DNA of 64,000 bases from a bacterium (GTDB lineage Bacteria > JADJOY01). The notes under the pieces are model-generated. The model had not been told where the DNA came from. It did not search any database and saw nothing but the letters and a program-made list of their open reading frames with translations. Location: contig JAXLQJ010000023.1 in the NCBI GenBank assembly GCA_046331705.1, positions 1-64,000 of the forward strand. Direction: 5' to 3'. Position 1 is the stretch's first letter. Every line of letters begins with the position of its first letter. The translations under genes were made by a program, and so were the position numbers. Positions 32,749 through 64,000 of this stretch are shown piece by piece.

Positions 32749-32766
32749 GCCGCCGGATCGCGGGGC

Positions 32767-41182: not shown

Positions 41183-44100
41183 TCATTTCCCGGCGATCGC
41201 GAAGAGCCGCGAACGCGTGGTGACGAAGAGCACGCCTTGGTGGGCGACGGGGGTCGTGTAGATCGGGCTGCCCATGTTGATCTCGCGGATCAGCTGCTTT
41301 TCCTTGCCGTGCTTCAGGATCGCGATGTCGCCGTCCTCGTCCGCCTGGTAGACCTTGCCATCGGCGACGAACGGCGACGACCAGATCGCCGCCATCGCGT
41401 CGTACGTCCAGTAGAGCTTTCCGGTCGCGACGTCGAGGCAATAGAGGAAGCCCGACAGATCCGCCGCGTAGAGCAAACCGACGGCGATCGCCACCGACGC
41501 GATGGTGCGGTGGAAGTCCTCGCCGCCACGGGTCCAGATCAAGCCGCTCTGGGTGATGTCGCCGCGCTTGCTGGCGTCGATCGCGTAGAGGTGGCCGACG
41601 CCCTCGCCGTGCTCCGGGTCCTGGCCCACCGCCACGTACACCTTGCCGTCGCGGAAGACCGGCATCGCGATGATGTTGTTGCGGGTGCCGCCGCCGCCGA
41701 GGTCCCAGACCGCGTTCTTCGGGTTGCAGTCGAACTTCCACAAGAGCTCGCCGGTCTCGGGAACGAACGAGTAGAGCCAGCCGTCGCCGCCGGCGAACAC
41801 CACCTGCGGGACGCCGCCGGCCTCGCCATACGACGGGCTCGACCAGCTCCCGTGCAGGATGTTGTTGCCGGGGAGGTTGCTCTTCCAGAGCAGCTTCCCG
41901 GTCGCTTGCTCGAGGGCCACGAAGCTCGGCGCCTCGGGATTGGGGATGTTGATGTGTCCCTCGTCCACGCCGTTGCCGGTGACGGCGAACAGGATGCCGC
42001 CCTTCGCCATCGGCGAGGACGCCGCCATGTTGTGCGGGAAGACGCCCAGCTCCGTCATCAGGTTGTACTTCCAGACGATGTCGCCGGCGGCGGAGCCGGG
42101 CTCCGTCTCGGCGGTGAAGGGGCCGTCGTTCTGGCCGTCGCGGAAGCCCTCGGTGTCCGCGCACACGATCTCGCCTTGGTTGGAGACGTAGTAGAGGCGA
42201 TCGCCCTGCACGAAGGCGGTGGAACAGATGCCCTGCAACGGCCAGTCGTTGACCTGTCCGGTCGCTTGCTTCGGGTGGACGATCTGCCACAGGAACTCGC
42301 CGGTCTTCTCGTCGAACGCCATGACCACGCCGCGATCGCCCTGGATCTTCGGATCGCGTGGCGACTCGTTGTTGGTGCCCACGAACACCTTCTTCCCGAA
42401 CACCACGGGTCCGCCGTAGCTCTGCGAGCCGAGCTTCGCCTGCCAGCGGATGTTCTTGCCGCTCGTCACGTCCCAGTCGTCGGGCAGGTGCTTCTCGGCC
42501 GACGCCATGTTGCGAGCGATCGTCCCGCCGAGCATCGTCGCCGGCGGCTCGGGCTGCTTGCGGCGCGCGAGCAGCTCGGGGCTCGCCGCGGGCGCCGCGG
42601 GCGGCGATGTCGACGCGGCAACGGTGGACGCGGGCGGCGCCGCCGGCGGCGGGGAGCTCGGCGCCTCGGATGGCTTCGCGATGGCCTCGAGCGCAGCCAG
42701 CGCGGCGTTCGGCGCGACCTCGACGTTGTCGTAGTAGATGTCGACGGGCGAGTAGCCGTAGAGCCCGGGAGCGCCCTGGGTGACGCCGAAGAGGTCGTCC
42801 ACCTCGATCGTCCAGGCGCTCGGCTCGGCCTCCGACCGCGGCCAAACCTTGCCGCGCACCAGCACGTGGTGGTCGCCCTTCGGTTCGGTGCGCAGACGCA
42901 CCCGGTACCACGTGTCGGGCCGCCACGGGTACGGCACGGTGCGGGCCATGCGCAGCGCCGAATGCCACGAGCTCACCTGGATCGTCTGCAGCGCGCCCAA
43001 GAGCTCGAGGGTGTAGCCGCCGTTCACCAAGCCCATGTCCGCTCGTTCGGCGCCCTTTTGCCGGCTCATGAGATCGGCGGTGATCGTGTAATCGCGCCAC
43101 GACGCCGGTCCGAGGTAGGTGCGCGTGCGCTGCAAGCCGGTCGGCGCGGGGAACTTGTTGAGCAGCCGCTCGCCGTCGAGATCGGCGACCTTGAAGCGGC
43201 CGCCGAAGATCCAATACGGCACCGCTTGGCCCACCGGCAGCGTCGAGAAATCCTCGTGCCAGGGCGGCGGCGCGATCACGCGCACCCGGGCCTTGGCCGT
43301 GAGCTCGCCGAGCTTGGCGACCACGAAGCCCGCCTGGAACGCCGCGGTGCTCGCGGTGAAGCTCGATTCGCTGGATGCAGGAGAGCCGCTCGGCTCGAGG
43401 GTGCCGGCGAGTTTCTCGAGGCTCACGCTCGCGGGAGTGACCGGGCCGAGCGGACGGCCTTGGGCGTCGAACGCGCGAGCGCGGAATCGAACCTGTTCTC
43501 CGGGGGCGACGAGCACCTCCGCGGGAACCAGCGCGAGCGTGGCCGGCTCGCCGCCGCCTCGAGGAACGGGGGTGGGTGCCGCGAGGGCGGTCGCACCCGT
43601 GAAGGGCTTGCTGGGATCGCCCAGGCAATAGATCCCTTCCTCGGTGGTGAAGAAGACGCGCCCACCGGAGATCGCCACCGAGCCGTAGAGCTCGGCGGGG
43701 CGTCCGCCGGGCATCGTGATCTCGTCGCGATCGAGGAGCTTGGCGCCGTCGCGCCCCGCCTGGACGATGGAGAGCCGGCCGTTGACCTCGGTCGCGTAGA
43801 GCCGGCCATCGGCCCAGACTGGCGAGCCCTTGCCCACGGTGCCGAGCTTGAGCGGCGGCCATAGCGCCTTGCCCGTCGCGGCGTCGATGCCGTGCAGGTT
43901 GGCCGAGTCGTCGACCACGTAGAGGACTCCATCGTGGATGGTCGGCGAGGCGTAGCCGGCGCGCAGCTCCTCGATCCGCCAGCGCTCGGCGGACTGGGTG
44001 ACGTTGCCGCTGCCGGTCGCGTCGATCGCCACCACCGCGCCCATCACGCCGCTCTCGATGTTCTCGTCGGTGTGGGTCGCGTAGACCGTGGTGCCGTCCA

Positions 44101-44920
44101 CGACCACCGCGGTGTTGATGGCCTGCTTCGTGAGCTGGAACTCCCAGATCTTGCGGCCGGTGCGTGGCTCCAGCGAGTAGATCCAACCGTCCGCGCCGCC
44201 GCTCAGCATCTGCTCGCGGCCGCCGATGGTGGCGATGACCAGGTTCGACTGCGTGTTGAGGTCCGCCGCCGGCTTGCCTGGCGCCGAGGTCCAGGCGACC
44301 TCGCCCGTGCGCTTGTCGAACGCGTAGTAGCGGTGCGACGGCGGCTCGTAGCCGAGCACCGACGAGCTGATCACGTTCACGATCACCAGGTCCTCGAACA
44401 CGATCGGGTTCGCGGTGCGGCCGCCGTAACCGGAGAACCGGCCCTGCTCCTCGTGCAGCGCGCGCTGCCAGACCACGCGCCCGTCGCGATCGAAGCAGGT
44501 CAGGTGACCGTCCGAGCTCTGCGCGTAGAGGTTGCCGGTCTCGGGGTCGCCGGTCGGGCTCGACCAGCCCGCGCGATTGAACGGGATCGTGGTGTTGTGG
44601 GGGACGAGAGTGACCTCCCAGCGCTTGGTGCCGTCGGCGGCGTTCCAGCACGCCACGCGTTCGGCGCGGTCGTCGCCGCTGCCCTGACGCCCGAACGCGC
44701 ACACCCGTCCGTCGAAGACCACGGGAGTGGAGCGGCCGACGAAGTCGTCGCGCCACACCAGGTTCTCCTTCGCTCCGTCCCTCGACCACGACGCGACGAG
44801 CCCCGTTTCATCGGAGACTCCGTCCTGGTGCGGCCCGCGCCAGCTCGCCCAGTCGGAGGCGAAGGCGGGCGCGCCGAGGATCAACCACGAAGCGATGGCG
44901 GCGAGACGAGCGTGACGCAT
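41183..44920 (-). CDS. Large secreted protein with two PQQ-like beta-propeller regions and central beta-sandwich-like domains
   Basis: Signal peptide then DWASWRGP; many DxxTGxxxW docking repeats; Pro/Ala linker before a second propeller (NIRWQAKLGSQSYG). Confidence 0.88.
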   Translation of the reverse strand: MRHARLAAIASWLILGAPAFASDWASWRGPHQDGVSDETGLVASWSRDGAKENLVWRDDFVGRSTPVVFDGRVCAFGRQGSGDDRAERVACWNAADGTKRWEVTLVPHNTTIPFNRAGWSSPTGDPETGNLYAQSSDGHLTCFDRDGRVVWQRALHEEQGRFSGYGGRTANPIVFEDLVIVNVISSSVLGYEPPSHRYYAFDKRTGEVAWTSAPGKPAADLNTQSNLVIATIGGREQMLSGGADGWIYSLEPRTGRKIWEFQLTKQAINTAVVVDGTTVYATHTDENIESGVMGAVVAIDATGSGNVTQSAERWRIEELRAGYASPTIHDGVLYVVDDSANLHGIDAATGKALWPPLKLGTVGKGSPVWADGRLYATEVNGRLSIVQAGRDGAKLLDRDEITMPGGRPAELYGSVAISGGRVFFTTEEGIYCLGDPSKPFTGATALAAPTPVPRGGGEPATLALVPAEVLVAPGEQVRFRARAFDAQGRPLGPVTPASVSLEKLAGTLEPSGSPASSESSFTASTAAFQAGFVVAKLGELTAKARVRVIAPPPWHEDFSTLPVGQAVPYWIFGGRFKVADLDGERLLNKFPAPTGLQRTRTYLGPASWRDYTITADLMSRQKGAERADMGLVNGGYTLELLGALQTIQVSSWHSALRMARTVPYPWRPDTWYRVRLRTEPKGDHHVLVRGKVWPRSEAEPSAWTIEVDDLFGVTQGAPGLYGYSPVDIYYDNVEVAPNAALAALEAIAKPSEAPSSPPPAAPPASTVAASTSPPAAPAASPELLARRKQPEPPATMLGGTIARNMASAEKHLPDDWDVTSGKNIRWQAKLGSQSYGGPVVFGKKVFVGTNNESPRDPKIQGDRGVVMAFDEKTGEFLWQIVHPKQATGQVNDWPLQGICSTAFVQGDRLYYVSNQGEIVCADTEGFRDGQNDGPFTAETEPGSAAGDIVWKYNLMTELGVFPHNMAASSPMAKGGILFAVTGNGVDEGHINIPNPEAPSFVALEQATGKLLWKSNLPGNNILHGSWSSPSYGEAGGVPQVVFAGGDGWLYSFVPETGELLWKFDCNPKNAVWDLGGGGTRNNIIAMPVFRDGKVYVAVGQDPEHGEGVGHLYAIDASKRGDITQSGLIWTRGGEDFHRTIASVAIAVGLLYAADLSGFLYCLDVATGKLYWTYDAMAAIWSSPFVADGKVYQADEDGDIAILKHGKEKQLIREINMGSPIYTTPVAHQGVLFVTTRSRLFAIAGK

Positions 44921-44981
44921 GTGTCCTCCGCGGAGGGGAAGGCGAGTCTACCCAGCATCGAGCCGCATGGGCTCGCGGCGC

Positions 44982-47843
44982 TCATGGCGCGGCGGGCGGT
45001 GCGGCGGCCGGGGTCCCCACCGCCGGCGCCGGCGCGGGCTCGCGGCTCGCGCAGAAGGTGCCGGCGGCGAGCTCGGTGAGATCGTCGATGCCGTCGTGGT
45101 CCTCGTCGCCGGGGACGACCTCGCCGAGATGGGTGGTCACGATGCCGTCGGCGCCCAGCGACGCGATGTCGCCGAACCCGTCGCCGTCGAAATCGCCAGC
45201 GACGACGAGCGGTGGCGACGGGTTCGCCGCGCCGTCCTGGTCTGGGAACGCATCGCGGCGCACCAGCGCGTTCGGCTCGCGGCTCACCCACAGCTCGAGC
45301 GCGCGCGGCGGCGCGGACGCCAGCACGACGGCGTCGCGAAGCGGCGACAAGCGCGCCAGCGCGAGCACGTCGACCGGGTGGCCGAGCTCGGTCGCGCGCG
45401 CGTCGAAGCCGCCGTGCCCGTCGGGCTCGATCCACGTGACGCGGCTCGCGCCGCCCGCGTCGCCGCTCGTCACCAGGATGTCGGGTTGCACGTCGCGATC
45501 GACGAAGCCCACCGCCAGCGCTCGCGGTCGCGCACCGCAGGCGAGTGTCGCCGTGTCGCGCAACGCTCCGCCACCGCCGCTCGCCAGGATCGGACAGGTG
45601 CCGTCGGCGAGCGCGACGACGACCTCGTCGCGCTGGTCACCGTCGAGGTCCACGGCGGCGAGCGCCTCGATGGGGCTCGCGAAGGGGTCGTGTACGAGCT
45701 GGGGCGGATCGCTCGGCTCGAGCGTCCAGGCGTGGAGCTGGCCTCGGCCGCTCGCGTCGCGGGTGGAGACCAGGACGCGCGGCGCGGTCTCGTGCGCGTC
45801 GATCAGCACCGCGCGATCCGCGGGATCGGGCAGCGATGCCTGGATCGGGTGCTCGTCGTCGAACGAACCCTTGCCGTCGCCGAGGATCAGCTGGAACCCC
45901 GCGGGCGCGGCGGTGGGGAACGCGAGCACGGCCTCGCCGGAGGACACCAGCGCCAGCAGCTCGCCGCCCAGCCGTGCGTCGGCACGCACCGGCGTCGGTG
46001 CGAGCGAGAAACCGCCACGCCCGTCCGCGAGCAGCAGCCGAAACGACGTGCCGGACGCCGCGTCGACCGCGACCACCAGATCGTCGTCGCCATCCCCGTC
46101 CACGTCGCCTGCCGCCACGCGTCGCGCCGAAGCGAGCTCGGCCACGCGCTGCACGTGGCCCGTCGCGGTGAGCCCGCGCGGCTCGCCGCGCAGCGCGATC
46201 GCTCCCACGTCGACGGCGGCGCCGCGGAAGTGGACCGGCGGCGATGCGCCGAGGATCGCGTGATCGCCGCACTCGACGCTCGCGTAGACGCGCGTCGCCC
46301 AGGGCGAGGGCGGACCGCCGCCGCTCGCGAAGTGGCCATCGACCTCGCTCCGGATCGCGTTGCGCGGATCGTCGCCGCGGAACACCCGCGCGCCGCGAAC
46401 GGGCGCGAGCAAGCCCGCGGACGTACGTTCCACGACCCGACCGGCGATCGCGTTGAGCGCGTGGTTTTCCGAGGAGGTCGGCGCGAGGTGGCGTGGCAGC
46501 CGAGCCACGATCCACTCGCGCGCGCCGTGCACCAGGCTGAGGAAGCGAATGCGCACGGAGCGCGCGAGCTCGCGCAGGCGCCCGGCGCGGCTCGGCTCGG
46601 CGCCCGGCTCCTGGATGGTCACCGCCGCGACGTCGCGGGTGTTGCGGACGAGGATCCGTCCGTCGGCGAAGGTCGGGTACGTGTAGCTGGCGCGGTCGAG
46701 CACGTCGATGCTCGCCTGCTCGCGGTAACCCTGCGGCGACGCCTCCGCCACGACGACCTTGCCGCTGGTCGCGAGGATCACCAGGTGACCATCGACGCGA
46801 ATGAGCCCCCGGCCTCGGGGAGGGCGCGATTTCCAGATCTCGCGGCCGTCCTCGGCCGACACGCAGGTGAGGAACTCGCCGTTGAAGCCGTACACGAACC
46901 CCTCGTGCAGCACCGGAGTCGAGTAGCTGTTCTTGAGATCGTCCGAGGTCCACAGCGCTTCGACCTCGAAGCGGCCGCTCGTGTGCCTCACGCGATACGC
47001 GATGGACCGGACTTCCCCCGTGAGCAGCAGACGATCGTCGCCGAGCAGCACCGGCGCCGGGACTCTGCCGGTCTCGTAGCGTTGCGACCACAGCGTGGTG
47101 CCGGTGGCCGGATCGATGCCGCTCACCACGGACTGCGTCACGCTCACGAGCTGCTCGACGCCGCCGATCTCGGCCACGATCGGCGATTGGTAGTCGGTGG
47201 GGTCCTCGCCCGTGGCCCAGCGAAGCTCGCCGGTGCGCTTGTCCAAGCCGACCACTCCTCGGCCATCGGGGCCGCCGGGCTCGATGACCAGCACGTCGCC
47301 GGCCACCAGCGGCGAGGTCGCGAACCCGAAGGGCGGCGTCTTCGCGCCGAACCGCTCGTCGAGCCTGAGACGCCAGAGCTCCGCGCCATCCGCGAGGCGC
47401 AACGCGAGGAGATGACCTTTCGGCCCGAGGGCGTAGACGATGCCGTCGTCGATCGCCGGCACGCTCTTGGCGCCGCCCTCCGAGCCACCCTCGGCGGGGA
47501 ACGTCGAATCGATCGCGTGCGTCCAGAGCGTGGCGCCCGTCGCCGCATCGAGCGCGATCACGTAGTCCGTCCCGCCATCCGCATAGAGCGTCACGGCGCG
47601 TCCCTCGGCGACGGATATTCCCGAGTACGCCACCCCGAGCGGGCGCGACCACGCCACCCGGAGCGCGATCGGTGTGCGATCGAAGAGCCCGCCGGCCTCG
47701 GTCGTGCCGTCGTAGTGAGCGCCGCGCCAGTGCGGCCAATCCGCGCCCCGGGCCGCCGTCGCTCGCAGCGGCAGCGCGCAACACATCGCGCCGACGAACG
47801 TCACGGCCCACCACCGCCGCGACGGACGGATCGTCGAGTTCAC
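44982..47843 (-). CDS. PQQ-like beta-propeller fused to FG-GAP/VCBS repeats
   Basis: ADWPHWRG, LDAATGATLW repeats; GDVDGDGDDDL, DLDGDQRDE, GDFDGDGFGDI; DEDHDGIDD tail; start uncertain. Confidence 0.82.
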   Translation of the reverse strand: MNSTIRPSRRWWAVTFVGAMCCALPLRATAARGADWPHWRGAHYDGTTEAGGLFDRTPIALRVAWSRPLGVAYSGISVAEGRAVTLYADGGTDYVIALDAATGATLWTHAIDSTFPAEGGSEGGAKSVPAIDDGIVYALGPKGHLLALRLADGAELWRLRLDERFGAKTPPFGFATSPLVAGDVLVIEPGGPDGRGVVGLDKRTGELRWATGEDPTDYQSPIVAEIGGVEQLVSVTQSVVSGIDPATGTTLWSQRYETGRVPAPVLLGDDRLLLTGEVRSIAYRVRHTSGRFEVEALWTSDDLKNSYSTPVLHEGFVYGFNGEFLTCVSAEDGREIWKSRPPRGRGLIRVDGHLVILATSGKVVVAEASPQGYREQASIDVLDRASYTYPTFADGRILVRNTRDVAAVTIQEPGAEPSRAGRLRELARSVRIRFLSLVHGAREWIVARLPRHLAPTSSENHALNAIAGRVVERTSAGLLAPVRGARVFRGDDPRNAIRSEVDGHFASGGGPPSPWATRVYASVECGDHAILGASPPVHFRGAAVDVGAIALRGEPRGLTATGHVQRVAELASARRVAAGDVDGDGDDDLVVAVDAASGTSFRLLLADGRGGFSLAPTPVRADARLGGELLALVSSGEAVLAFPTAAPAGFQLILGDGKGSFDDEHPIQASLPDPADRAVLIDAHETAPRVLVSTRDASGRGQLHAWTLEPSDPPQLVHDPFASPIEALAAVDLDGDQRDEVVVALADGTCPILASGGGGALRDTATLACGARPRALAVGFVDRDVQPDILVTSGDAGGASRVTWIEPDGHGGFDARATELGHPVDVLALARLSPLRDAVVLASAPPRALELWVSREPNALVRRDAFPDQDGAANPSPPLVVAGDFDGDGFGDIASLGADGIVTTHLGEVVPGDEDHDGIDDLTELAAGTFCASREPAPAPAVGTPAAAPPAAP

Positions 47844-48061
47844 GACGCGTGTTGGAACCGAGCCACGAACCGCGCTCCGTGAGCTGGAATCGCACCGAAG
47901 GGGTGTGGCCTGTGTAGCACAGAAGGGGTCCGCCACTCGCGGCGAGCGACGTCGCCCGCTCGCGTCCGCCGCGTGCGCCGAGCGCTCGCGCGCGGGTGCG
48001 GGTCGGTCGCCGGACGGCTACACTCGCTTGCGCCGTCCCACGCGCGCGCCTTCCGCGGCCG

Positions 48062-49258
48062 ATGAGCGAATCGATCGTCGCTTTCGATTTCCAGCCTCGC
48101 ACGCGCATCGTCTTCGGCGCGGGGCGAGTCGCCGAGCTGGGGCGGCTCGCGTCCGAATGCGCGGCGCGCCGCGTGCTGCTCGTCACCGATCGAACGCTGG
48201 TCGCGCTCGGTCACGCCGAGCGCGGGCGCGAGTCGCTCGCGCGAGCCGGCATCGAGGTCGCGCTCTTCGATGGCGTGCGCGAGAACCCCGACACCGACGA
48301 CGTCGCGCGCTGCCTGGAGGCCGCCCGCGCGGCGCGGATCGACGGCTTCGTGGGGCTCGGCGGCGGCAGCAGCCTCGACACCGCGAAGGCCTGCAACTTC
48401 CTGCTCACCAACGGCGGTCGGATGGAGGACTACTGGGGGCGGGGCAGGGCCACACAGCCGATGTTGCCGCTGATCGCCGTGCCCACCACCGCGGGCACGG
48501 GCAGCGAATGCCAGTCGTTCACGCTCGTCGCCGACGCGCGAAGCCACCGGAAGATGGCGTGCGGCGATCCCAAGGCCGCGCCGCGCGTGGCGCTCCTCGA
48601 TCCCGAGCTCACCGCGACGCAACCGCGCCAGGTGACCGCGGATACCGGCATCGACACGCTCGTGCACGCCCTCGAGTCCGCGGTGACCACCGCGCGAAAC
48701 GAGGTGTCGAGCCTGTTCGCGCGGCGTGCCTTCGCGCTCGCCGTCGCGAGCCTGCCGCGCGTTCTCGACGAGCCAGGGGATCTCGCGGCGCGCGGCGCGA
48801 TGCAGCTCGCCGCGGCGTACGCCGGGCTCGCCATCGAGCACTCGATGCTCGGTGCCGCGCACTCGGCGGCGAACCCGCTGACGGCGCGCCATGGCGTGGT
48901 GCACGGGCGCGCGGTCGCGTTGATGGTGCCCGCCGTCATCCGTCACAACGCCGTCGATCCCGCGATCGCGCGGCTCTACGCCGAGCTGGCGATCGAGGCG
49001 CGGATCGTGGCGGCGGGAGAGAACGTCGAGCGCGTGGTGGGCGCGCTGCTCGACGCCGTCGAGCGCATCCTCGATCATGCCGGGATGCCGCGGCGCCTCG
49101 CGGATCTCGGCATCGACCCCACCGGCATTCCCGCGCTGGCGGCGGATGCGGCAGACCAATGGACCGCGCGTTTCAATCCGCGGCCGGTCGACGTGGCGGA
49201 CTTCACCTCGCTCTATCGCTCCTTGCTCGCTCCCGGACCGGCACGAGGTCGAGCGTGA
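48062..49258 (+). CDS. Iron-containing alcohol dehydrogenase
   Basis: GGGSSLDTAK, VPTTAGTGSE, DTLVHALE, AAHSAAN, HG; TACACT -10-like element at 48019. Confidence 0.93.
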   Translation: MSESIVAFDFQPRTRIVFGAGRVAELGRLASECAARRVLLVTDRTLVALGHAERGRESLARAGIEVALFDGVRENPDTDDVARCLEAARAARIDGFVGLGGGSSLDTAKACNFLLTNGGRMEDYWGRGRATQPMLPLIAVPTTAGTGSECQSFTLVADARSHRKMACGDPKAAPRVALLDPELTATQPRQVTADTGIDTLVHALESAVTTARNEVSSLFARRAFALAVASLPRVLDEPGDLAARGAMQLAAAYAGLAIEHSMLGAAHSAANPLTARHGVVHGRAVALMVPAVIRHNAVDPAIARLYAELAIEARIVAAGENVERVVGALLDAVERILDHAGMPRRLADLGIDPTGIPALAADAADQWTARFNPRPVDVADFTSLYRSLLAPGPARGRA

Positions 49259-51827: not shown

Positions 51828-51843
51828 TCGGAACGACGAACCC

Positions 51844-53112: not shown

Positions 53113-53115
53113 AGC

Positions 53116-55368: not shown

Positions 55369-55557
55369 CGCGTGCCCGTCCCGGCGCGCGCGCTCGCGCG
55401 GCGATCCCGATCCCGAGCGTGGACGGTCATCGACGGAGCGGATCGGCGGGTTGGATTTCGCGAGCCTCCACGCGCCGAGAGTTTATGGCAATCTGCGCCC
55501 GCGGTCGCACGTTCGGCAGGCTCGCCGCTCGCGCGCTCGTCCACGAAAGGGGAGGAC

Positions 55558-55998: not shown

Positions 55999-56735
55999 GC
56001 GGCGCGCGGGACACGACGTCGAGCGTGCGGGCGCTCGCGCTCGACGTTCGGTGGCTGCGCTGGGTCCGCTGGGGCTCGGTCGCGCTCATCCTGGGCACGC
56101 TGATTCCCTCGAGCGGCGGCCACGTCATGTGGCTCAACATGCACGTGCTGACCCGTTACGCCCTCGCCATCGCGCCGCCGCGCATCGAGCCGGATCGCGC
56201 GAGCTTCCTGTTCCTGTTCGGCGCGTGCTCGTGGACCATCGCGCTCAGCGGGTGGCTGGGGCTGTGGATCGCCCGCAACGCCCAAGCTCACGCCGCCTCG
56301 CCGAGCGCGGGGCTCGAACGATGGTCGCGCCGTCTCTTCCTCTTCTCGTGGCTCGCGCCGTGCTCGTTCGTCGCGCTCTACACCTGGCGCTTCCACGGCT
56401 TCAGCGTCCCCGCCGCGGCGCTCATCGTCGCCGCGCATCTGGCGCTGGGGTGGCGCGTGAGCGCCCATGCCCGGCAGCAGGCGGACCGCTGGCTCGCCGT
56501 CCTCGCGTACGCGCTCTTGCCGGCGGGGGTCTCGCTCTTCGGCTGGATCTGCATCGCGATCATCTTCCTCTTCTGTCCGGACGTGATCTTCGCCCACGGA
56601 ATCCTGCTCGGCGGCCTGGGGGCGGCGGCGCTGCTCGGCGGGCTCGCGCGACGGTGGCGGGAGCGAAACGCCCTCCAGCGGAGCGCGGACGCCACGCGCG
56701 ACGGCGCGGTCGCGGCGGTCGCCGCGGGCCCGTGA
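55995..56735 (+). CDS. Hypothetical membrane protein (paralog of 40339-41070)
   Basis: PSSGGHVMW, GACSWTI, LYTWRF, IFAH. Confidence 0.75.
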   Translation: MSGARDTTSSVRALALDVRWLRWVRWGSVALILGTLIPSSGGHVMWLNMHVLTRYALAIAPPRIEPDRASFLFLFGACSWTIALSGWLGLWIARNAQAHAASPSAGLERWSRRLFLFSWLAPCSFVALYTWRFHGFSVPAAALIVAAHLALGWRVSAHARQQADRWLAVLAYALLPAGVSLFGWICIAIIFLFCPDVIFAHGILLGGLGAAALLGGLARRWRERNALQRSADATRDGAVAAVAAGP

Positions 56736-56786
56736 GGCGCGAGCGTCGCAGCCGCGGCGTCGCATGACGGTCGTCTCGGGCTGGCG

Positions 56787-58076
56787 ATGACGCTGGTATT
56801 GCTCACCCCCGGCACCGGCACGTTCTATTGCGGCAGCTGCATCCGCGACGACGGCTTGGCGCGAGGGCTGGCGCGCGCCGGCCGCGACGTGTGGATGGTG
56901 CCGCTCTACCTGCCTCAGGTGACGGAGGTGGAGAGCACGGTCGCCGACGCGCCGATCTGCTTCGGCGGGATCAACGTCTACCTGCAACAACACTCGGCGC
57001 TCTTCCGGCGGACTCCTGCGTGGATCGATCGGCTCCTCGACCAGCCCTGGCTGCTGCGCGCGGCGGCGAGCCTCTCGGACATGACCAACACCGCCGCGCA
57101 CGGACCGCTCACGGTGTCGATGCTGCGCGGCGAAGAGGGCAATCAACGCAAGGCGCTGGACCAGCTGCTGAGCTTGCTCGCCGATCATCGGCCGCCGCCG
57201 ACCGCGGTGTGCCTCTCGAACGCGTTGCTGGTGGGATTGGCGCGGCGGCTACGCGAGGAGCTGCGCGTGCCGGTGGTGGTCACGCTGCAGGGCGAGGACG
57301 CGTTCCTGGATTCGCTGGCCGAGCCGGACCGCGCGTCGGCGTGGGAGGAGATGGGCTTGCGCATTCGCGACGTCGATGCGCTGGTCGCCGTGAGTCGCTA
57401 CTACGGTGACGCCATGCAGCAACGCCTCGGCTTCGACCGCGCGAAGCTCCACGTCATCCACAACGGCATCGACGTCGACGGTTACGAGCCGGCGGCGGCG
57501 GACCCGGCCCCGCCGGTGCTCGGCTACCTGGCGCGCCTCACGGCGGGCAAGGGCCTCGACCGTCTCGCGGAGGCGTTCCTCGTGCTCAGGAAGCGCCCGG
57601 AGCTCGCGGGTCTGCGGCTGCACGTGGCCGGCTCCATCGCGCCCGGCGACGAGGCGTACCTGGAGAGCGTGCGGCAGCGGCTGAGCTCCGCCGGCGCGGC
57701 ACCCGACGTCGAGATCCGAACCAACCTGAGCCTCGCCGAGAAGCAGGCATTCCTCCGCTCGTTCTCGGTGCTGTGCGTGCCGGCGACCTACGGCGAGTCG
57801 TTCGGCCTCTACCTGCTGGAAGCGTGGGCGAGCGGCGTGCCTGTCGTTCAACCGCCGGTCGCGTCGTTTCCCGAGCTCGTCGCAGCGACCGGCGGTGGCC
57901 GGCTCGCCGAGAGCGCCGAGCCGGAGGCCCTGGCGGCGGCGCTCGGCGCGCTGCTCGCGGACCCCGCCGAGCGGCGTGAGCTCGGCCGTCTGGGGCGCGC
58001 CGCGGTGCTCGAGCGGTTCACCCTCGATCGCATGACGCGCGAGTTCCTGGCGCTCGTCGACGGGCTCGCGCGATGA
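56787..58076 (+). CDS. Glycosyltransferase family 4
   Basis: VIHNGID, ARLTAGKG, ESFGLYLLEAWASGVPVV; N-terminal FYCGSCIRD. Confidence 0.9.
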   Translation: MTLVLLTPGTGTFYCGSCIRDDGLARGLARAGRDVWMVPLYLPQVTEVESTVADAPICFGGINVYLQQHSALFRRTPAWIDRLLDQPWLLRAAASLSDMTNTAAHGPLTVSMLRGEEGNQRKALDQLLSLLADHRPPPTAVCLSNALLVGLARRLREELRVPVVVTLQGEDAFLDSLAEPDRASAWEEMGLRIRDVDALVAVSRYYGDAMQQRLGFDRAKLHVIHNGIDVDGYEPAAADPAPPVLGYLARLTAGKGLDRLAEAFLVLRKRPELAGLRLHVAGSIAPGDEAYLESVRQRLSSAGAAPDVEIRTNLSLAEKQAFLRSFSVLCVPATYGESFGLYLLEAWASGVPVVQPPVASFPELVAATGGGRLAESAEPEALAAALGALLADPAERRELGRLGRAAVLERFTLDRMTREFLALVDGLAR

Positions 58077-58137
58077 TCGGCGCGCGGCACCTGCACCCGC
58101 CAGCCGAGCCCCGGCGCTCGACCCACCCGGCCTCCCG

Positions 58138-59448
58138 ATGATGCGTACGCCCACGCTCGCCGAGCAACGCGCACGAATCGAGCAAGACCAGCTCGCGCGG
58201 CTGCGCGCGCTGGTGCGAGAGCTGGTGCCCGCCAACCCGTTCTGGACCGCGCGGCTCGCCGCGGCCGGCCTGGATCTCGCGATCCCGAGCCTCGCCGAGC
58301 TGCGGCGATTGCCGCTCGTGCGCAAGTCGGAGATCGTCGCCGACCACGCGGCGCACCCGCCCTTCGGCTCCAATCTGAGCGCGCCGATCGCGGACTACAC
58401 CCGCGTCCACTACACCAGCGGCACCACCGCCGAGCCGCTCGCGTGGCCCGACACCGCCGCGAGCTGGCAATGGATGCTCGAGAGCTGGAAGCGGATCTTC
58501 CGCGCTGCCGGCGTGGCGCGCGGCGACCGGATCTTCTTCGCGTTCTCGTTCGGCCCCTTCCTCGGCTTCTGGGCGGCGTTCGACGCCGCCACCCAGCTCG
58601 GCGTGCAATGCCTGAGCGGCGGCGGCATGAGCTCGCAGAAGCGCCTGCACGCCATGGTGCGCGCGCAGTCGACGGTGCTCTGCTCGACTCCCACCTACGC
58701 GCTCCACCTGGTCGAGACCGCGCGTCAGCTCGGCCTGGATCCGAGTGCCTTGCGGCTGCGCACCGCGATCGTGGCGGGAGAGCCCGGCGGCAGCGTGGCC
58801 GCCGTGCGCCGTGCGATCCGGGCCGGGCTCGGTGCCGAGGTCTTCGATCATCACGGCATGACGGAGGTCGGGCCGGTGAGCTACCAATGCCCCGCTCGAG
58901 CCGGCACCCTGCGCATCCTCGAGACCTCGTATCTCGCCGAGGTGATCGACCCGGCGAGCGAGGAGCCGGTGGCTCCGGGCGGCGAGGGCGAGCTGGTGCT
59001 CACGACGCTCGGTCGTGCGGCTTGTCCCATGCTCCGCTATCGCACCGGCGATCTGGTGCGGCCGGTGCTCGTCGACGAGGACGGCGGCGGCGAGGGGCCT
59101 CATCTGGCGCTCGCGGGCGGCGTGCTGGGCCGCACCGACGACGTGGTGATCGTGCGCGGCGTGAACGTCCATCCGAGCGCCGTCGACGAGATCGTCCGCG
59201 CCGTCGACGGCGTGGCCGAGTACCGCGTGCAGGTCGGGACGCGCCACGCGATGACCGAGCTCACGCTGGAGGTCGAGCCGCTGGAATCGGCGCAACCCGA
59301 GCTGCTGCGCGCCACACTCGAGGAGCGCTTGCAACGCATCCTCTCGCTCCGCATCCCGGTGACGTTGACCGCTGCGGGCGCGCTGCCGCGCTTCGAGCTC
59401 AAGGCGCGCCGCTGGGTGCGCCGCCCGCCCACCGAGCCCGCGCCGTGA
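58138..59448 (+). CDS. Phenylacetate-CoA ligase (PaaK)-like adenylate-forming enzyme
   Basis: YTSGTT, AGEPG, HGMTE, RYRTGD, GRTDD-VIVRGVNV, LPRFELKARRW. Confidence 0.9.
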   Translation: MMRTPTLAEQRARIEQDQLARLRALVRELVPANPFWTARLAAAGLDLAIPSLAELRRLPLVRKSEIVADHAAHPPFGSNLSAPIADYTRVHYTSGTTAEPLAWPDTAASWQWMLESWKRIFRAAGVARGDRIFFAFSFGPFLGFWAAFDAATQLGVQCLSGGGMSSQKRLHAMVRAQSTVLCSTPTYALHLVETARQLGLDPSALRLRTAIVAGEPGGSVAAVRRAIRAGLGAEVFDHHGMTEVGPVSYQCPARAGTLRILETSYLAEVIDPASEEPVAPGGEGELVLTTLGRAACPMLRYRTGDLVRPVLVDEDGGGEGPHLALAGGVLGRTDDVVIVRGVNVHPSAVDEIVRAVDGVAEYRVQVGTRHAMTELTLEVEPLESAQPELLRATLEERLQRILSLRIPVTLTAAGALPRFELKARRWVRRPPTEPAP

Positions 59449-60128
59449 GCGCCCCGCTGGTGCAGCTCGACGACGTGGTGCGGCGCTTCGACGGCGAGGC
59501 CGGCTCGCAGATCGTCCTCGACGGCGTGAGCTTCACGCTCGAGCGCGGCGCGGCGGTGGCGATCCAGGGCCCGTCGGGAGGTGGCAAGAGCACGCTGCTC
59601 AACCTCGTCGGCGCGCTCGATCGGCCCACCTCCGGACGCGTGATCCTCGACGGCGAGTCGCTGGGCGATCTCGACGACGACGCGCGCGCTCGCGTTCGCG
59701 CCACCAAGATCGGCTTCGTCTTCCAGGAGCACCACCTGCTGCCGCAATGCACAGCGTTCGAGAACGTGCTGGTGCCGACGCTGGCGCGTGGCCGCGCCGC
59801 GAGCGCCGAGGCCATGGCCCGCGCCGAGGCGCTGCTCGAGCGCGTCGGCCTCGCCGACCACGCCCGCAAGCGCCCGCACCAGCTCTCGGGCGGACAGCGG
59901 CAGCGCGTCGCGGTCGTGCGCGCGTTGATCAACGAGCCGATGCTGCTGCTCGCCGACGAGCCCACCGGCTCGTTGGACCGCGCCGCCGCCGAGACGCTGG
60001 TCGAGCTGCTGGTGGAGCTCAATCGCGATCGCCAGCTCGCGCTGCTGGTCGCCACTCACGCGACCGAGGTGGCCGCGCGGGTGGGGAAGACGCTGCACCT
60101 CGGCGACGGGCAGCTTCGACCCGAGTGA
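59445..60128 (+). CDS. ABC transporter ATP-binding protein (LolD/MacB type)
   Basis: GPSGGGKST, GFVFQ, LSGGQRQR, LLADEPTGSLD. Confidence 0.93.
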   Translation: MSAPLVQLDDVVRRFDGEAGSQIVLDGVSFTLERGAAVAIQGPSGGGKSTLLNLVGALDRPTSGRVILDGESLGDLDDDARARVRATKIGFVFQEHHLLPQCTAFENVLVPTLARGRAASAEAMARAEALLERVGLADHARKRPHQLSGGQRQRVAVVRALINEPMLLLADEPTGSLDRAAAETLVELLVELNRDRQLALLVATHATEVAARVGKTLHLGDGQLRPE

Positions 60129-60141
60129 TCCGAGGCCGCGC

Positions 60142-63100
60142 ATGCACGGCTGGCGACTGATCCTGCGCGCGCTGGTCCACCACCGGCGCACGCACCTCGG
60201 CATCGGCGCGGGCGTCGCGGTGGCGGCGGCCATCTTGGTCGGCGCGCTCGCGGTCGGCGATTCGCTCCGCGCCAGCCTCGAGGAGCAGGCGCTCCGGCGC
60301 GTCGGCCGCGTGCGCTGGGCGATGCACACCGGCGATCGGCCGTTCACCGACGAGCTCGCCGCGCGACTGAGCGAGGCGCTGGCCACCAGCGACGAGCCCG
60401 CCACCGCGGCGCTTTCGATCGAGGGCGTGGCCATCGCCGACGGCGGGCGCCGGCGCGCTCCCGAGGTGCGCGTGCTCGGCATCGACCCGTCGTTCTGGGC
60501 GCTCGGTGGGGTCGCGCCCCGAGGCCCGCGCGCCGCCGACGGCGCGGTGATCAATCGAGAGCTCGCGGCGGCGCTCGCGGTGGCGGCGGGTGACGAGCTC
60601 CTGCTGCGCGTCGCCAAGCCCAGCGCCTTGCCGCGGGACGTGCCGCTCGCCAGCGACGACGAGGCCAGCGTCACGCTGCGGGTCACGGTGGAAGAGGTGA
60701 TCGACGGCGCATCGTTCGGCGACTTCGACCTCGCGGCAGCGCCGACGGCGCCGCGGAACGTCTTCGTCGATCGGCGGCTGCTGCAGCGACGGGTGGGGCT
60801 CGTCGGGCGCAGCAACCTGGTGCTCGTCGCCGGCGACGTGGCGCGCACAGCGCTCGTTTCCGGCGGGAGCGCGAGCGCGCCCTCCGGAACCGTGGTTCCG
60901 GAGGCGCTGGCCCGCGGCTGGCGCCTCGAGGATGCCGGAGCGCGGTTGCGTCGGCTCGCACCGGAGGGACCGTGGGACCTGGCGAGCGACCGGGTCTTCC
61001 TCGCCGACGCGCTCGCCGACGCGGCCCAGCGAGCCGCGCCGAGTCGCGCGGCGTCGACGTATTTCGTGAGCTCCATCGAGGCAGCGAACGGCAAGCTCAC
61101 GCGCTACGCGATGGTCACCGCGTACGACCCCGCGGCCGAACCGCAAGCGCCACCCGCGCCCGTTCCCGCGACGCTCGCCCCCGACGAGATCGTGGTCACC
61201 CGCTGGCTGGCGGCGCAGCTCGCGGTGAGCGTGGGCGATCCGCTCACCCTTCGTTATTGGGTCTTCGACCTGAGCCGGCGGTTGCGCGAAGCGGTGGCCA
61301 CCTTCCGGGTCGCTGCCGTGGTCGAGGACGAAGCTCCCGGCGGAGATCGCGACCTGATGCCGGATCTGCCCGGCCTCACGGACGTCGCGAGCCCGCTCGA
61401 CTGGGCGCCGGCACCCGAGCTGGGCGTGCGCGTGGAGCGGATCAGCGCGGCCGAGACCGCGTACTGGCACGCGCATCGCGGCGCACCGAAGGCGTTCGTG
61501 AGCGCCGCCTGGGCGCGCCGCGACGGCGCGTGGCGGACGCCTTACGGCGACGTGACCTCGGTGCGCCTCGCCGCGGGTGTGGCGGAGGCGTCGTTGCGCG
61601 AGGCCATTCGCGAGCGGATCGGCGATCCGGCGCGCCTCGGCCTCGGTTTCGCGCCGGTTCGGGAGCTCGCCCTCGGCGCCAGTCGCCAAGGGGTGGCGTC
61701 GTATTTCGGCTATCTCTTCGTCGGGCTGAGCATCTTCGTGATCGTGGCCGCCATCACGCTGATCGCGTTGCTCTTCTCGTTCCACGTCGAGCAGCGCACC
61801 GACGAGATCGGCACGTTGCTGGCCCTCGGCTTCCGACCGGCGGGCGTCGCGCGGCTCTTCGTCGGCGAGGGGCTCGCCGTGGCGGTGGTGGGCGCGCTCG
61901 TGGGCTTGCCCGCGGGAGGGCTCTACGCCGCCGCGATGCTCGCGGCGCTGTCCGGCCGCTGGGCCGAGGCGGTCGCTCGGACCCCGCTCACGTTCCACGT
62001 CGCCCCCGCCACACCGGTCCTCGGCTTGGTCGCGACCGTGGTCGTGGCGACGATCGCGATGGCTCGCGTGTTGAAGCACCGGCTCCGTCTGGATGCGCAC
62101 ACGCTGATGTCGGCGCGCTTCGGCTCGTTCGAGAGCGCGGGTATGTCGCGACGGCGCGCGCGGGTGGTCGCGGCGGCGTGCGCCACGGCGGCGGTGGTCT
62201 TGGCGTCGCGCGGGCTGGGCGCGGACGCCGCCGGCGCCACCGGATTCTTCTTCGGCGCCGGCACGCTCATGCTCCTGGCCTCGCTCTACGCGGCGGCGGC
62301 GTTCTTGCGCCCACCCGACCGCATCCACTCGCGTCCGATCACCTTCCTCGCCCTCGGCCGGCTGAGCGGCGGCCGCCGCCTGACGCGCTCGCTGGCCACC
62401 CTCGGCATGCTCGCGAGCGGGATGTTCCTGGTGGTCGCGGTGAACGCGTTCCGTCAGGGCGACGACTCCACGATCGGCACCGGCGGGTTCGCGATGTTCG
62501 CCAGGACCTCCATCCCCGTCGCACACGACCTCGGCAGCGCAGCGGGCGTGGCTCGTCTCGGGCTCGATGCGTTTCCCGGCGTCCGCTTCCTGCCGTTTCG
62601 GCTGCGCGACGGCGACGAGGCAAGCTGCCGGAACCTCAATCAGCCGAAGCGGCCGCTCGTCCTCGGCGTGGATGCCGCGGCCATCCAGGCACGCAATCCG
62701 TTCCGGTTCGCGCGCACGCTCACGCCGGTCTCCCAGCCCTGGTCGTTGCTCGCGCGCCAGGACGAGCCGGACGTGGTGCCGGGCGTCGTCGACGACGCGG
62801 TCGCGCAATGGGTCCTCAAGGTGGGGCTCGGCGACACCCTCGCGTACGTCGACGAGGCGGGGCGGCCGTTTCGAATCCGCATCGTGGGGACCCTCGCGAG
62901 CTCGATCCTGCAGGGTTACGTGGTGATCGACGCGCGTGCCTTCGCGGCGCGCTTTCCGTCGATCGCGGGCAATCGCGTCTTCCTCGTCGATCTGCCGAGC
63001 GCCGAATACGCGGCGTTCGATCGGCGTCTGAAGGAGTCGGCGCTCGAGGACTACGGACTCACGACCGTGCCGGCGAGCGAGCGGCTCGCGGCGTTCGAGG

Positions 63101-63489
63101 CCGTGCAGAACACGTACCTGTCGATCTTCTCGGTGGTGGGTGGCCTGGGGCTGGTGCTCGGATGCTTGGGGCTGGCATTGGTGGTGCTGCGCAACGTCCT
63201 GGAGCGCCGCGCCGAGCTCGCCATCCTGCTCGCCGTGGGGTTCTCGAAAGGGCGGGTGCGCCGGCTGGTGTTGCTCGAGCACGTGGGGCTCTTGGTGCTG
63301 GGCGCGACGCTCGGGATCGTGGCGGCGGTCGTCGCCGTGGGGCCTGCGGCGATCGAGCGCGGCCGACTGCCGCTCGACTTCCTGCTCGGCACCGCCGTCG
63401 CGGTGATCGCGAACGGTCTGGTGGCGACGATCGCAGCCACCGCGCTCGCTCTGCGCGGCGAGCTGGTGCCGGCGCTGCGTCGCGAGTAG
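60142..63489 (+). CDS. FtsX-like ABC permease (duplicated, 1115 aa)
   Basis: Two FtsX motifs (EQRTDEIGTLLALGF; ERRAELAILLAVGF) with large periplasmic domains. Confidence 0.9.
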   Translation: MHGWRLILRALVHHRRTHLGIGAGVAVAAAILVGALAVGDSLRASLEEQALRRVGRVRWAMHTGDRPFTDELAARLSEALATSDEPATAALSIEGVAIADGGRRRAPEVRVLGIDPSFWALGGVAPRGPRAADGAVINRELAAALAVAAGDELLLRVAKPSALPRDVPLASDDEASVTLRVTVEEVIDGASFGDFDLAAAPTAPRNVFVDRRLLQRRVGLVGRSNLVLVAGDVARTALVSGGSASAPSGTVVPEALARGWRLEDAGARLRRLAPEGPWDLASDRVFLADALADAAQRAAPSRAASTYFVSSIEAANGKLTRYAMVTAYDPAAEPQAPPAPVPATLAPDEIVVTRWLAAQLAVSVGDPLTLRYWVFDLSRRLREAVATFRVAAVVEDEAPGGDRDLMPDLPGLTDVASPLDWAPAPELGVRVERISAAETAYWHAHRGAPKAFVSAAWARRDGAWRTPYGDVTSVRLAAGVAEASLREAIRERIGDPARLGLGFAPVRELALGASRQGVASYFGYLFVGLSIFVIVAAITLIALLFSFHVEQRTDEIGTLLALGFRPAGVARLFVGEGLAVAVVGALVGLPAGGLYAAAMLAALSGRWAEAVARTPLTFHVAPATPVLGLVATVVVATIAMARVLKHRLRLDAHTLMSARFGSFESAGMSRRRARVVAAACATAAVVLASRGLGADAAGATGFFFGAGTLMLLASLYAAAAFLRPPDRIHSRPITFLALGRLSGGRRLTRSLATLGMLASGMFLVVAVNAFRQGDDSTIGTGGFAMFARTSIPVAHDLGSAAGVARLGLDAFPGVRFLPFRLRDGDEASCRNLNQPKRPLVLGVDAAAIQARNPFRFARTLTPVSQPWSLLARQDEPDVVPGVVDDAVAQWVLKVGLGDTLAYVDEAGRPFRIRIVGTLASSILQGYVVIDARAFAARFPSIAGNRVFLVDLPSAEYAAFDRRLKESALEDYGLTTVPASERLAAFEAVQNTYLSIFSVVGGLGLVLGCLGLALVVLRNVLERRAELAILLAVGFSKGRVRRLVLLEHVGLLVLGATLGIVAAVVAVGPAAIERGRLPLDFLLGTAVAVIANGLVATIAATALALRGELVPALRRE

Positions 63490-63671
63490 CGCGCTCGCAC
63501 GGTCCGCAGTGCCCGCGTCGTTCGCCGCCGGGTCGGCGAGCCGGCGCGTTGATGGTCGTCGCGCACGTCACCTATGTTGAAGGCCCTTCGCGCGCCGTCG
63601 ACGCCACCGCCGTGATGGGCGGCGTGCTCGAACGACCCGACCCGCTTCCCCCGTCGCGATCGAATCCGAGG

Positions 63672-64000
63672 ATGGCGATGGCGTCGCGACCGAGACGAAT
63701 CGCGCGTGAATGTGCGCTCGCGCCATGGGGCCGCACGGCGATCCTGCTCGCTCTCGGGGTGCTCGCCATGGCGGCGCCCACGCCGGCGGCGCCCGCGCCG
63801 GCGCAGCGGCCGATCGGCTGGCGCATGGACGGGACCGGCAACTTTCCGGCCGCGACACCCACGCTCGAGTGGTCCGCCACGCATCACGTGCGGTGGATGA
63901 AGCGGATGCCGAGCTGGAGCAACTCGTCGCCGATCCTGGTCGGCGAGCGGCTCTTCGTGTCCTCCGAGCCTGACCGGCTGCTGTGCTTGCGCGCCGCGGA
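63672..64000 (+). CDS. PQQ-like beta-propeller protein (5' part, runs off the window)
   Basis: Open frame absent from the ORF track: signal peptide then GWRMDGTG...EWSATHHVRW...SNSSPILVGERLFV. Confidence 0.8.
   Translation, partial: MAMASRPRRIARECALAPWGRTAILLALGVLAMAAPTPAAPAPAQRPIGWRMDGTGNFPAATPTLEWSATHHVRWMKRMPSWSNSSPILVGERLFVSSEPDRLLCLRAA

Follow-up and report, generated by a model that had tools for sequence, protein, structure and literature searches.

Cofactor supply systems include those for pyrroloquinoline quinone (PQQ) and mycofactocin and the Ccm route of haem loading, with glycosylation in the mycofactocin system and a hand-over driven by an ATP-binding cassette (ABC) transporter in Ccm. 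Reduction of aryl acids is represented by EhpF/EhpG and GriC/GriD, which we take to be two-part aryl-acid reductases. According to the available part of one study, the hydroxymethyl group of griseoluteic acid derives from phenazine dicarboxylate (PMC3175449). Class C radical S-adenosylmethionine (SAM) enzymes transfer a C1 unit derived from SAM to sp2 carbons; in MenK this results in methylation of an aromatic ring, and for NosN the acceptor is a thioester-bound indole, as stated in the accessible portion of PMC10114718. Type VII ABC transporters typically work on the periplasmic face, where they extract membrane molecules or activate partners without passing solutes across the membrane, and TesA contacts both periplasmic domains of YbbP (PMC12646458, available sections). 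In Planctomycetales strain 10988, a chorismate-lyase-like gene beside that of a halogenase-like flavoprotein (baaAB) has been proposed to underlie 3,5-dibromo-p-anisic acid; the proposal comprises these two genes and an unlinked O-methyltransferase, and BaaB is ~44% similar to Bmp5 (bioRxiv 10.1101/723874). A 2025 review calls that pathway postulated, and the accessible part of its text mentions no halogenase, radical SAM, or PQQ (PMC12078418). Here, we analyze a bacterial gene cluster that combines enzymes, an ABC transporter, and secreted PQQ-like propellers. It lies in a 64,000-nucleotide stretch, hereafter the window, which corresponds to bases 1-64000 of contig C23 (103,638 bp) in an 8.2-Mb genome labelled G000.

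We find that a glycosyltransferase family 4 (GT4) gene, an ABC transporter (LolD/FtsX), and a single-copy propeller, P413, form a constant chassis, that the aromatic module joined to it is replaceable, and that an expanded family of secreted propellers co-occurs strictly with this chassis in two phyla sampled separately. With moderate confidence, we read the system as a biogenesis pathway whose product would be a hydroxybenzyl ligand or cofactor, glycosylated and probably also halogenated and C-methylated, that would be loaded onto secreted propellers. The genes concerned are the following:

41183-44920, minus strand: large secreted PQQ-like propeller fusion (Pfam PQQ_2)
44982-47936, minus strand: large secreted WPxWRG-type propeller with C-terminal FG-GAP repeats (Pfam PQQ_2 and FG-GAP)
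48062-49258, plus strand: iron-containing alcohol dehydrogenase, Fe-ADH (Pfam Fe-ADH, E 3e-50)
49255-50496, plus strand: P413, single-copy PQQ-like secreted propeller (family matches)
50493-51827, plus strand: HemN-like (class C) radical SAM enzyme (NCBIfam and PDB relatives, motif)
51844-53112, plus strand: flavin adenine dinucleotide (FAD) halogenase-like flavoprotein (Pfam, motifs, PDB relatives)
53116-55368, minus strand: membrane-bound penta-haem cytochrome c with five CxxCH motifs (lineage-specific insert)
~55558-55998 and ~55995-56735, plus strand: two small membrane-protein genes of the insert, the second paralogous to 40339-41070
56787-58076, plus strand: GT4 glycosyltransferase with N-terminal CxxC-x-RD (Pfam GT1/GT4)
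58138-59448, plus strand: PaaK-like aryl-acid coenzyme A (CoA) ligase (NCBIfam PaaK models)
59445-60128, plus strand: LolD/YbbA-type ABC ATPase, a chassis gene (Pfam/NCBIfam)
60142-63489, plus strand: FtsX-type (YbbP-type) ABC permease, a chassis gene (hydrophobic segments, fold)
~63672 to contig position 65173, plus strand: further secreted propeller running past the window (Pfam PQQ_2)
contig 65668-66285, 1.7 kb beyond the window edge: UbiC-like (chorismate-lyase-like) gene, belonging to the cluster

The genes, strands, and tight junctions named in a first-pass annotation of this DNA are all present and have family matches. Fe-ADH overlaps P413 by 4 nt (if the GTG at 49255 is the start), P413 overlaps the radical SAM gene by 4 nt, and 16 nt separate the latter from the halogenase-like gene. 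In the second run, GT4 and the PaaK-like gene are 61 nt apart, the PaaK-like gene and lolD overlap by 4 nt, and lolD and ftsX are separated by 13 nt. The two very large propeller genes on the minus strand diverge from this run, as had been noted; the true start of the one at 44982-47936 probably lies near 47843-47804. The CxxC pointed out in the GT4 protein is real, with C15 in 26/26 orthologues and C18 in 25/26. The window, whose GC content is ~71%, carries only half of the enzymes of the system. Beyond its edge, a small membrane gene sits between the propeller ending at 65173 and the UbiC-like gene, and a second locus on contig C13 (24927-33760) holds two propellers, DUF3311, an SSF sodium symporter, an EhpF-like adenylation enzyme, and an aldehyde dehydrogenase (ALDH)-fold gene; an EamA-like membrane protein is encoded on contig C27. 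Immediately upstream of the second locus, a GntR/FadR gene (C13 24017-24739) encodes its candidate regulator.

Scanning a genome collection with the radical SAM protein gave 42 loci, many of them cut by contig ends or by the 10-kb flank, with titles from Planctomycetota, Terriglobia/Acidobacteriota, Verrucomicrobia, Lentisphaeraceae, Deltaproteobacteria, and unclassified bacteria. The neighbours in these loci are the halogenase (36), a P413-like propeller (28), the UbiC-like gene (28), DUF3311 with the symporter (23), Fe-ADH (20), a 4HBT thioesterase (20), a 158-aa membrane protein (19), GT4 (18), the ALDH-fold gene (16), the second adenylation enzyme (14), a large propeller (13), LolD (12), PaaK (10), and FtsX (9); L007 is the most complete single locus. 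Such synteny is far above chance, and the cluster is conserved across Planctomycetota, Acidobacteriota, Verrucomicrobiota, and the lineage of this genome. The earlier expectation that the genes would be syntenic in other genomes is thus borne out, and so is the suggested likeness to planctomycete and verrucomicrobial neighbourhoods, since the cluster is common in both phyla. Among close relatives, the radical SAM gene occurs in 5/5 family members, all of which have the ALDH-fold gene beside the adenylation enzyme on a different contig, and in 0/35 distant genomes.

To follow the distribution by genome, we used a single fixed set of 121 Planctomycetota genomes (the centre genome and 120 others chosen at >=90% completeness) and a second set of 121 Acidobacteriota; Verrucomicrobiota were covered through loci and two handles only, rather than sampled as a phylum. 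In Planctomycetota, 25 genomes carry the radical SAM gene and the identical 25 carry the ALDH-fold gene; propeller B, the C-terminal part of the fusion at 41183-44920, also occurs in 25, of which 23 are shared with the radical SAM gene. GT4 is found in 33, including all 25 radical SAM genomes, and FtsX in 34, their union being the 35 chassis genomes. P413 was detected in 27 genomes at E 1e-45, all inside the GT4/FtsX set; the eight FtsX genomes below this threshold comprise four with a P413-like gene in the locus, three with one profile match, and one untried, and the P413 profile gave one match each in 5/5 genomes tried. All cluster genes tallied fall within the same 35 genomes. The pattern in Acidobacteriota is similarly nested, with FtsX in 33 genomes and all 28 radical SAM genomes among them. 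The genes are kept together in a genome even when they lie megabases apart (G080, G100, G117, and G165).

Some further observations concern the margins of this distribution. Among Acidobacteriota with FtsX and no radical SAM match, one locus (L112, G186) retains an EhpF-like and an ALDH-fold gene next to GT4, and another (L114, G288) has FtsX beside propellers and an EamA-like gene. More distant second radical SAM copies (39-45%) occur in other contexts (L069 and L070, from G097 and G103, and also G143, G163, and G223), one of them adjoining genes for a halogenase-like protein and a B12 radical SAM enzyme. In the Atlas, Bacteroidota and Hydrogenedentota make up most of some clusters of the CxxC GT4 family, and the chassis may therefore extend to other phyla. 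P413-family proteins are assigned by their sources to Thalassoglobus, Planctomicrobium, Maioricimonas, and Caulifigura, which means that cultured carriers exist; a Planctopirus limnophila orthologue was not among the 120 of 481 matches listed.

Using a C13 paralogue of the secreted WPxWRG-type propellers as the query in both draws, we detected the family in 38/121 Planctomycetota at E 1e-8. Exactly the 35 chassis genomes have 3 to at least 15-16 matches (best E <=6e-35), match numbers not being copy numbers, while the 86 chassis-less genomes comprise 3 with a single marginal match (~1e-9) and 83 with none. In Acidobacteriota, the family is present at E 1e-25 in 33/121 genomes, exactly those with FtsX, and in 0/88 others. 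Many copies lie far from the cluster. The protein at 44982-47936 belongs to this family (family hidden Markov model, E 2e-111). An alignment of 41 client paralogues (the query and 40 hand-picked from the listed matches in nine genomes, median identity 30%) shows that a non-repeat Arg in the last blade and a mid-chain Tyr are each kept in 38/41, a pattern that would fit a shared anionic ligand. The gene at 41183-44920 fuses propeller A and middle domains to propeller B (the last 460 aa), which are separate adjacent genes in most other carriers, and its product is likely a client or an enzyme. Propeller B, modelled by AlphaFold2 (AF2) with a predicted local distance difference test (pLDDT) value of 90, has a BamB-like fold according to its nearest matches, among which is tetrathionate hydrolase. 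It is 56-60% conserved across phyla in nine loci, above most of the enzymes, and retains His/Asp/Glu-rich loops. The three propellers scanned fall far under the BamB, PQQ-ADH (PQQ alcohol dehydrogenase), and TIGR04528 cut-offs, and the resemblance is by fold only.

Ten hydrophobic segments can be counted in the FtsX permease, which has two periplasmic domains (residues 39-524 and 770-997). The best Foldseek matches of its AF2 model (pLDDT 85) are E. coli YbbAP structures (9GE7/9GE6, E 2e-14, TM-score 0.30-0.35 by query), and by this model the permease is a YbbP-type, 10-helix type VII ABC protein and not a cytoplasmic exporter. The MacB/Lol-type export suggested earlier is therefore right as to the presence of a LolD/FtsX transporter but not as to its class. 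No MacAB-TolC adaptor or outer-membrane channel genes were seen among the open reading frames (ORFs) common to the loci, no genome-wide search having been made, and no GDSL esterase gene stands beside the ABC genes among the conserved neighbours; the modelled partner is a propeller. Namely, a complex model of both FtsX periplasmic domains with P413 scored 0.64, against 0.02 for the best of three controls, and placed P413 on both domains with at least 85% run-to-run contact agreement and a partner pLDDT of at least 90. The score mark used is reached by 116/157 solved complexes and 2/215 mismatched pairs, counts that are only rough for this job. The model supports, and does not prove, a role for P413 as the periplasmic partner of the permease. 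Across orthologues, two charge pairs are retained: FtsX 970 is D/E in 28/33 and P413 283 is R/K in 41/51, and FtsX R180 is found in 24/33 and P413 D343 in 39/51. P413 Cys181 (codon 49975-49977, in a Cys-Asp pair) is present in 51/51 orthologues and FtsX Cys829 in 33/33, these being the only cysteines in the periplasmic parts of the two proteins here. An intermolecular disulfide between them was considered and set aside; both residues lie outside the confident interface, which speaks neither for nor against it. A small membrane protein is EamA-like by the Atlas (score 0.96-0.98).

In the aromatic module, an hhalign comparison of the UbiC-like profile with E. coli UbiC gives a probability of 72% and E 3e-5, with the motifs SMT, REILL, PLG, and GR aligned; 2NWI also matches (E 3e-5). 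The PaaK-like ligase matches NCBIfam PaaK models at E 6e-66, below cut-off, and its PDB relatives are 2-hydroxyisobutyryl-CoA and phenylacetate-CoA ligases. The adenylation enzyme on C13 is homologous to EhpF over its full length (E 5e-44, residues 26-366 of 366), and the neighbouring ALDH-fold protein keeps the catalytic Cys and has Gly-Pro in place of the hydrolytic Glu, which is the pattern of an acyl reductase; this pair followed by Fe-ADH would take an acid to an alcohol. In the halogenase-like protein, GxGxxG and the W and P of WxWxIP are present in 37/37 sequences. The nearest solved relatives (ChlB4 7FCO, PltA 5DBJ, 3E1T, and 8ZOP; E 1e-58 to 1e-51) include ChlB4 and PltA, which act on thioester-bound aryl groups, and we predict a flavin-dependent halogenase-type enzyme. 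Maturation of a protein cofactor of the QhpG/LodB type was rejected, since halogenases score higher and no conserved precursor was seen among ORFs of at least 70 aa. The radical SAM protein has CxxxCxxC in 46/46 sequences and falls below all NCBIfam cut-offs (HemN 188 vs 325, HemW 160 vs 205, and HutW 186 vs 400 bits), its nearest solved relatives being HemN (1OLT) and NocN; two additional HemN-family genes occur in this genome. No carrier protein is conserved in the cluster among shared ORFs of at least 70 aa, and CoA thioester is thus the likely tether. Judged from their relatives, the front-end enzymes together point to a halogenated, C-methylated hydroxybenzyl alcohol that would then be glycosylated by GT4.

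These elements can be arranged in a scheme in which we infer the substrate, the order of steps, the product, and the loading of clients. A hydroxybenzoate-type acid would be made from chorismate by the UbiC-like enzyme or imported by the SSF symporter with DUF3311, and activated as a CoA thioester by the PaaK-like ligase. The flavin enzyme would halogenate the thioester, and the class C radical SAM enzyme would place a C1 unit on the ring. The carboxyl group would be reduced in two steps to a benzyl alcohol, by the EhpF-like enzyme with the Glu-less ALDH-fold reductase and then by Fe-ADH. The CxxC GT4 may glycosylate the product or join it to a membrane carrier, and the EamA-like protein encoded on C27 would probably move it across the inner membrane. 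The YbbP-type ABC transporter, using ATP, would lift the product from the outer leaflet to bound P413, where the invariant Cys-Asp might keep or relay it; P413 would then pass it to client propellers.

Ten Planctomycetota chassis genomes lack the aromatic module, and they show what can replace it. A redox module stands next to the chassis in G051, G053, G059, G085, G105, and partly G136, consisting of NuoEF-like, 2Fe-2S/GltD-like, Tat-type (twin-arginine translocation) ferredoxin, and NapH-like genes with membrane-anchored propellers; G256, an Acidobacteriota genome, shows it as well. The Tat-type ferredoxin occurs in 13/121 Planctomycetota, all of them chassis carriers, including nine of the ten without the aromatic module, in which it is usually next to NapH-like and NuoEF-like genes; in the tenth, G056, the FtsX gene lies on a 2.7-kb contig. 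Next to the chassis are also a squalene-hopene-cyclase-like gene (G085, G105, G155, G122, G256, and G003) and a DUF116-polyprenyl synthase (G085, G105, G155, and G003). The modules can coexist: in G003, terpene genes split the aromatic cluster into two halves, and ferredoxin and NapH-like genes are present in L038. Thus, an Fe-S electron-transfer module, accompanied in some cases by terpene cyclases, can stand in for the aromatic module. We also observed that, in the redox-module loci (L056-L065, L111, and L117), the NuoEF-like gene is fused and the module is undescribed, and that the terpene module (L058, L060-L061, L065, and L051) also includes prenyltransferase-fold, radical SAM, and small ferredoxin-like genes.

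The redox module points to a redox-related need of the clients, and a pathway dedicated to bringing electrons into the periplasm would fit clients that are redox active. The product might be an undescribed redox cofactor, namely a hydroxybenzyl or quinone species that is glycosylated, halogenated, and methylated. The type VII ABC transporter, together with a chaperone propeller bearing the Cys, would load it onto the tens of BamB/PQQ-like proteins found in each genome in Planctomycetota, Acidobacteriota, and Verrucomicrobiota; we offer this more specific version tentatively and consider it possible but doubtful. If true, these proteins would be periplasmic cofactor enzymes of a large class that has gone unrecognised, connected to the membrane in some lineages through NapH-type modules.

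Several points weigh against the biogenesis pathway as we read it. Co-occurrence of the client family with the chassis is partly trivial, because each cluster carries its own propellers, and only the absence from the 174 chassis-less genomes is informative for this reason; the genomes are related and do not amount to 242 independent tests, and family members may have been missed because scoring covered no more than 6-17 candidates per genome. In this genome, strong client-family members number only about six, and a profile search of it found neither the 4HBT thioesterase, present in 20/42 loci elsewhere, nor a 248-aa accessory gene. Regarding the enzymes, 0/23 UbiC-like members match the Pfam chorismate-lyase or DUF98 families, and Lys76 of the halogenase-like protein, although aligned by MAFFT in at least 95% of 36 sequences, aligns in 31/37 pairwise. 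NCBIfam links the same protein, at lower scores than to halogenases, to the flavoproteins QhpG, GoxB, and LodB, which are hydroxylases. The controls of the complex model were unrelated proteins rather than sister propellers, YbbAP-TesA, of like geometry to the modelled complex, had already been solved, and neither invariant Cys lies in the confident FtsX-P413 interface. Finally, chassis genomes without the aromatic module must use other cargo or salvage, which one fixed cofactor does not explain, and four of them (G051, G053, G059, and G136) show no biosynthetic front end in the stretches read.

Three products had been suggested for the locus before: an exported small molecule, an envelope glycoconjugate, or a cofactor or ligand for the periplasmic propellers. 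The last fits the evidence best, and small-molecule export is the weaker option because the type VII class does not carry solutes out of the cytoplasm. An envelope glycolipid is a rather unlikely alternative, in which GT4 would make an amphipathic glycoside (aryl here, cyclic terpenoid elsewhere), the ABC transporter and P413 would move it outward in a Lol-like manner, and the propellers would be lipid chaperones or binders. Type VII ABC proteins extract lipid-like cargo (PMC12646458, available sections), the chassis adjoins squalene-hopene-cyclase-like and DUF116-polyprenyl synthase genes in several genomes, the small membrane protein is EamA-like, and BamB provides the nearest folds of propeller B. 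Yet the aromatic version has no conserved acyl- or prenyltransferase, this genome yielded no terpene cyclase, and neither the NapH/ferredoxin module that replaces the aromatic one nor the His/Asp/Glu-rich loops of propeller B would be explained. Strict dependence of the family on the chassis would also be expected if the system glycosylated or arylated the propellers covalently, with the P413 Cys-Asp as the transfer nucleophile in an ABC-powered reaction; the invariant lone periplasmic cysteines of FtsX and P413 and the precedent of tetrathionate hydrolase for propellers as enzymes agree with this idea. We regard it as improbable, given that, apart from fold residues, the 41 client paralogues show no conspicuous acceptor motif with an invariant Cys, Ser, Thr, or Asn.

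Pairing of UbiC-like and halogenase-like genes in most of the 42 loci, as proposed for baaAB (bioRxiv 10.1101/723874), would also be expected of a secreted halogenated secondary metabolite of the baa/bmp kind, with the propellers incidental. That proposal is untested genetically and names no radical SAM enzyme, reductase, GT4, or ABC transporter; moreover, retention in single copy in a fifth to a quarter of two phyla, even when scattered, is unlike such clusters, and the ABC class is no cytoplasmic exporter. This explanation accordingly has a low probability, while 3,5-dibromo-p-anisic acid could be a shunt product of the pathway that we propose. The remaining candidate for a core lies outside the window. 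The first-pass annotation reported no polyketide synthase (PKS), nonribosomal peptide synthetase, or acyl carrier protein (ACP) there, which is literally true, but a PKS stands just beyond the edge:

contig 67704-76040, 3.7 kb beyond the edge: PfaA-like PKS, 2778 aa, with KS, KS-like, AT, ACP, C45/AAT, KR, and DH domains

It is accompanied by PPTase-like and FabL-like genes, the FabL protein being 95-96% identical across the genus. The idea that this PKS is the missing core, with the window genes tailoring its product, draws on the adjacency of the PKS block to the UbiC-like gene in G000 and G006 and of FabL to that gene in G007. We consider it very improbable and largely refuted: the PKS is unlinked in G008, where it lies mid-contig on a separate contig, the FabL partner was not found in G010, no orthologue was seen in 4/4 carriers from other phyla (0/4 in a stricter first look, hence a floor), and there is no PKS match in the 42 loci. 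The term core-less therefore holds for the conserved system, because the PKS is a genus-level neighbour that is not co-conserved. In the PKS block (66272-76040; L001:6273-16041), we observed an unusual domain order, with the C45/AAT (Ntn-hydrolase) domain between ACP and KR.

Other neighbouring genes fall outside the conserved set. The insert between the halogenase-like and GT4 genes, comprising the penta-haem cytochrome and two small membrane genes, does interrupt the run, as had been described; the cytochrome is lineage specific and multi-copy. Paralogues of it lie at window 37954-40266 and on contigs C7, C42, and C78. We rejected the cytochrome as a cluster member, as it is absent from 42/42 radical SAM loci, occurs in the close relatives G006 and G010, and is multi-copy. 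Similar lineage-specific gene sets are repeated at window 37954-41070 and 53116-56735 and on C7, C42, C78, and C55; the two window copies share 57% identity in the multi-helix penta-haem cytochrome and 49% in a membrane protein, whose paralogue at 40339-41070 has no Pfam match. Upstream, window 30532-37829 encodes a TonB-dependent receptor, a Rieske-domain protein, and a UbiA prenyltransferase; UbiA could in principle prenylate a hydroxybenzoate, and no UbiA is among the ORFs common to the 42 loci. In an expression look-up, six sequencing runs had 5-6% of the words, and four gave short scattered pieces only (longest listed, 471 nt), which therefore provide no evidence of transcription or habitat.

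Secreted propellers of planctomycetes, acidobacteria, and verrucomicrobia are labelled BamB or PQQ binding without functional evidence, and a family found only with one GT-ABC-propeller chassis, in two phyla that were sampled separately, makes their function directly testable. The locus also offers a widespread, apparently housekeeping use of a halogenase and, as a candidate, a new class of type VII ABC transporter partners. The full-text literature searched, whose coverage leaves out most subscription journals, describes neither the cluster nor the ABC-propeller pair, nor that the family depends on the chassis. The assembled system is thus new in that literature, each enzyme having a known fold, and the conserved pathway, core-less as first annotated, matches no characterised pathway there.

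Set beside the systems described at the outset, the locus resembles each of them in part. By analogy, it shares with PQQ, mycofactocin, and Ccm the co-distribution of a radical SAM enzyme and tailoring genes with an expanded client family; in contrast to them, no precursor peptide was seen, the enzymes are different, and the clients fall below quinoprotein cut-offs. A chorismate-lyase-like gene adjoins that of a halogenase-like flavoprotein as in baaAB/bmp, baaAB being compared by description only. The radical SAM protein has the HemN-like fold and cluster motif of HemN, NosN/NocN, and MenK and lies below every named-family cut-off. GxGxxG, a Lys at the catalytic position, WxWxIP, and a short length are shared with carrier-dependent flavin halogenases, whereas the cluster here has no conserved carrier protein. 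The C13 enzyme aligns end to end with EhpF (3HGU, 3L2K) and is followed by a Glu-less ALDH-fold gene; unlike in the EhpF system, no phenazine genes were seen in the conserved set, the acid is probably a hydroxybenzoate, and a halogenase, a radical SAM enzyme, GT4, and an ABC transporter are linked. The closest parallel of the chassis is E. coli YbbAP-TesA (9GE6-9GE8; PMC12646458, available sections), which likewise has a 10-helix single-chain permease with two periplasmic domains, a LolD-like ATPase, and a partner on both domains, a contact that is modelled here. The partner of the present system, however, is an eight-bladed propeller rather than a GDSL esterase, its permease is 1115 aa rather than ~800 with 14% identity, and its ABC transporter is tied to GT4 and to a propeller family.

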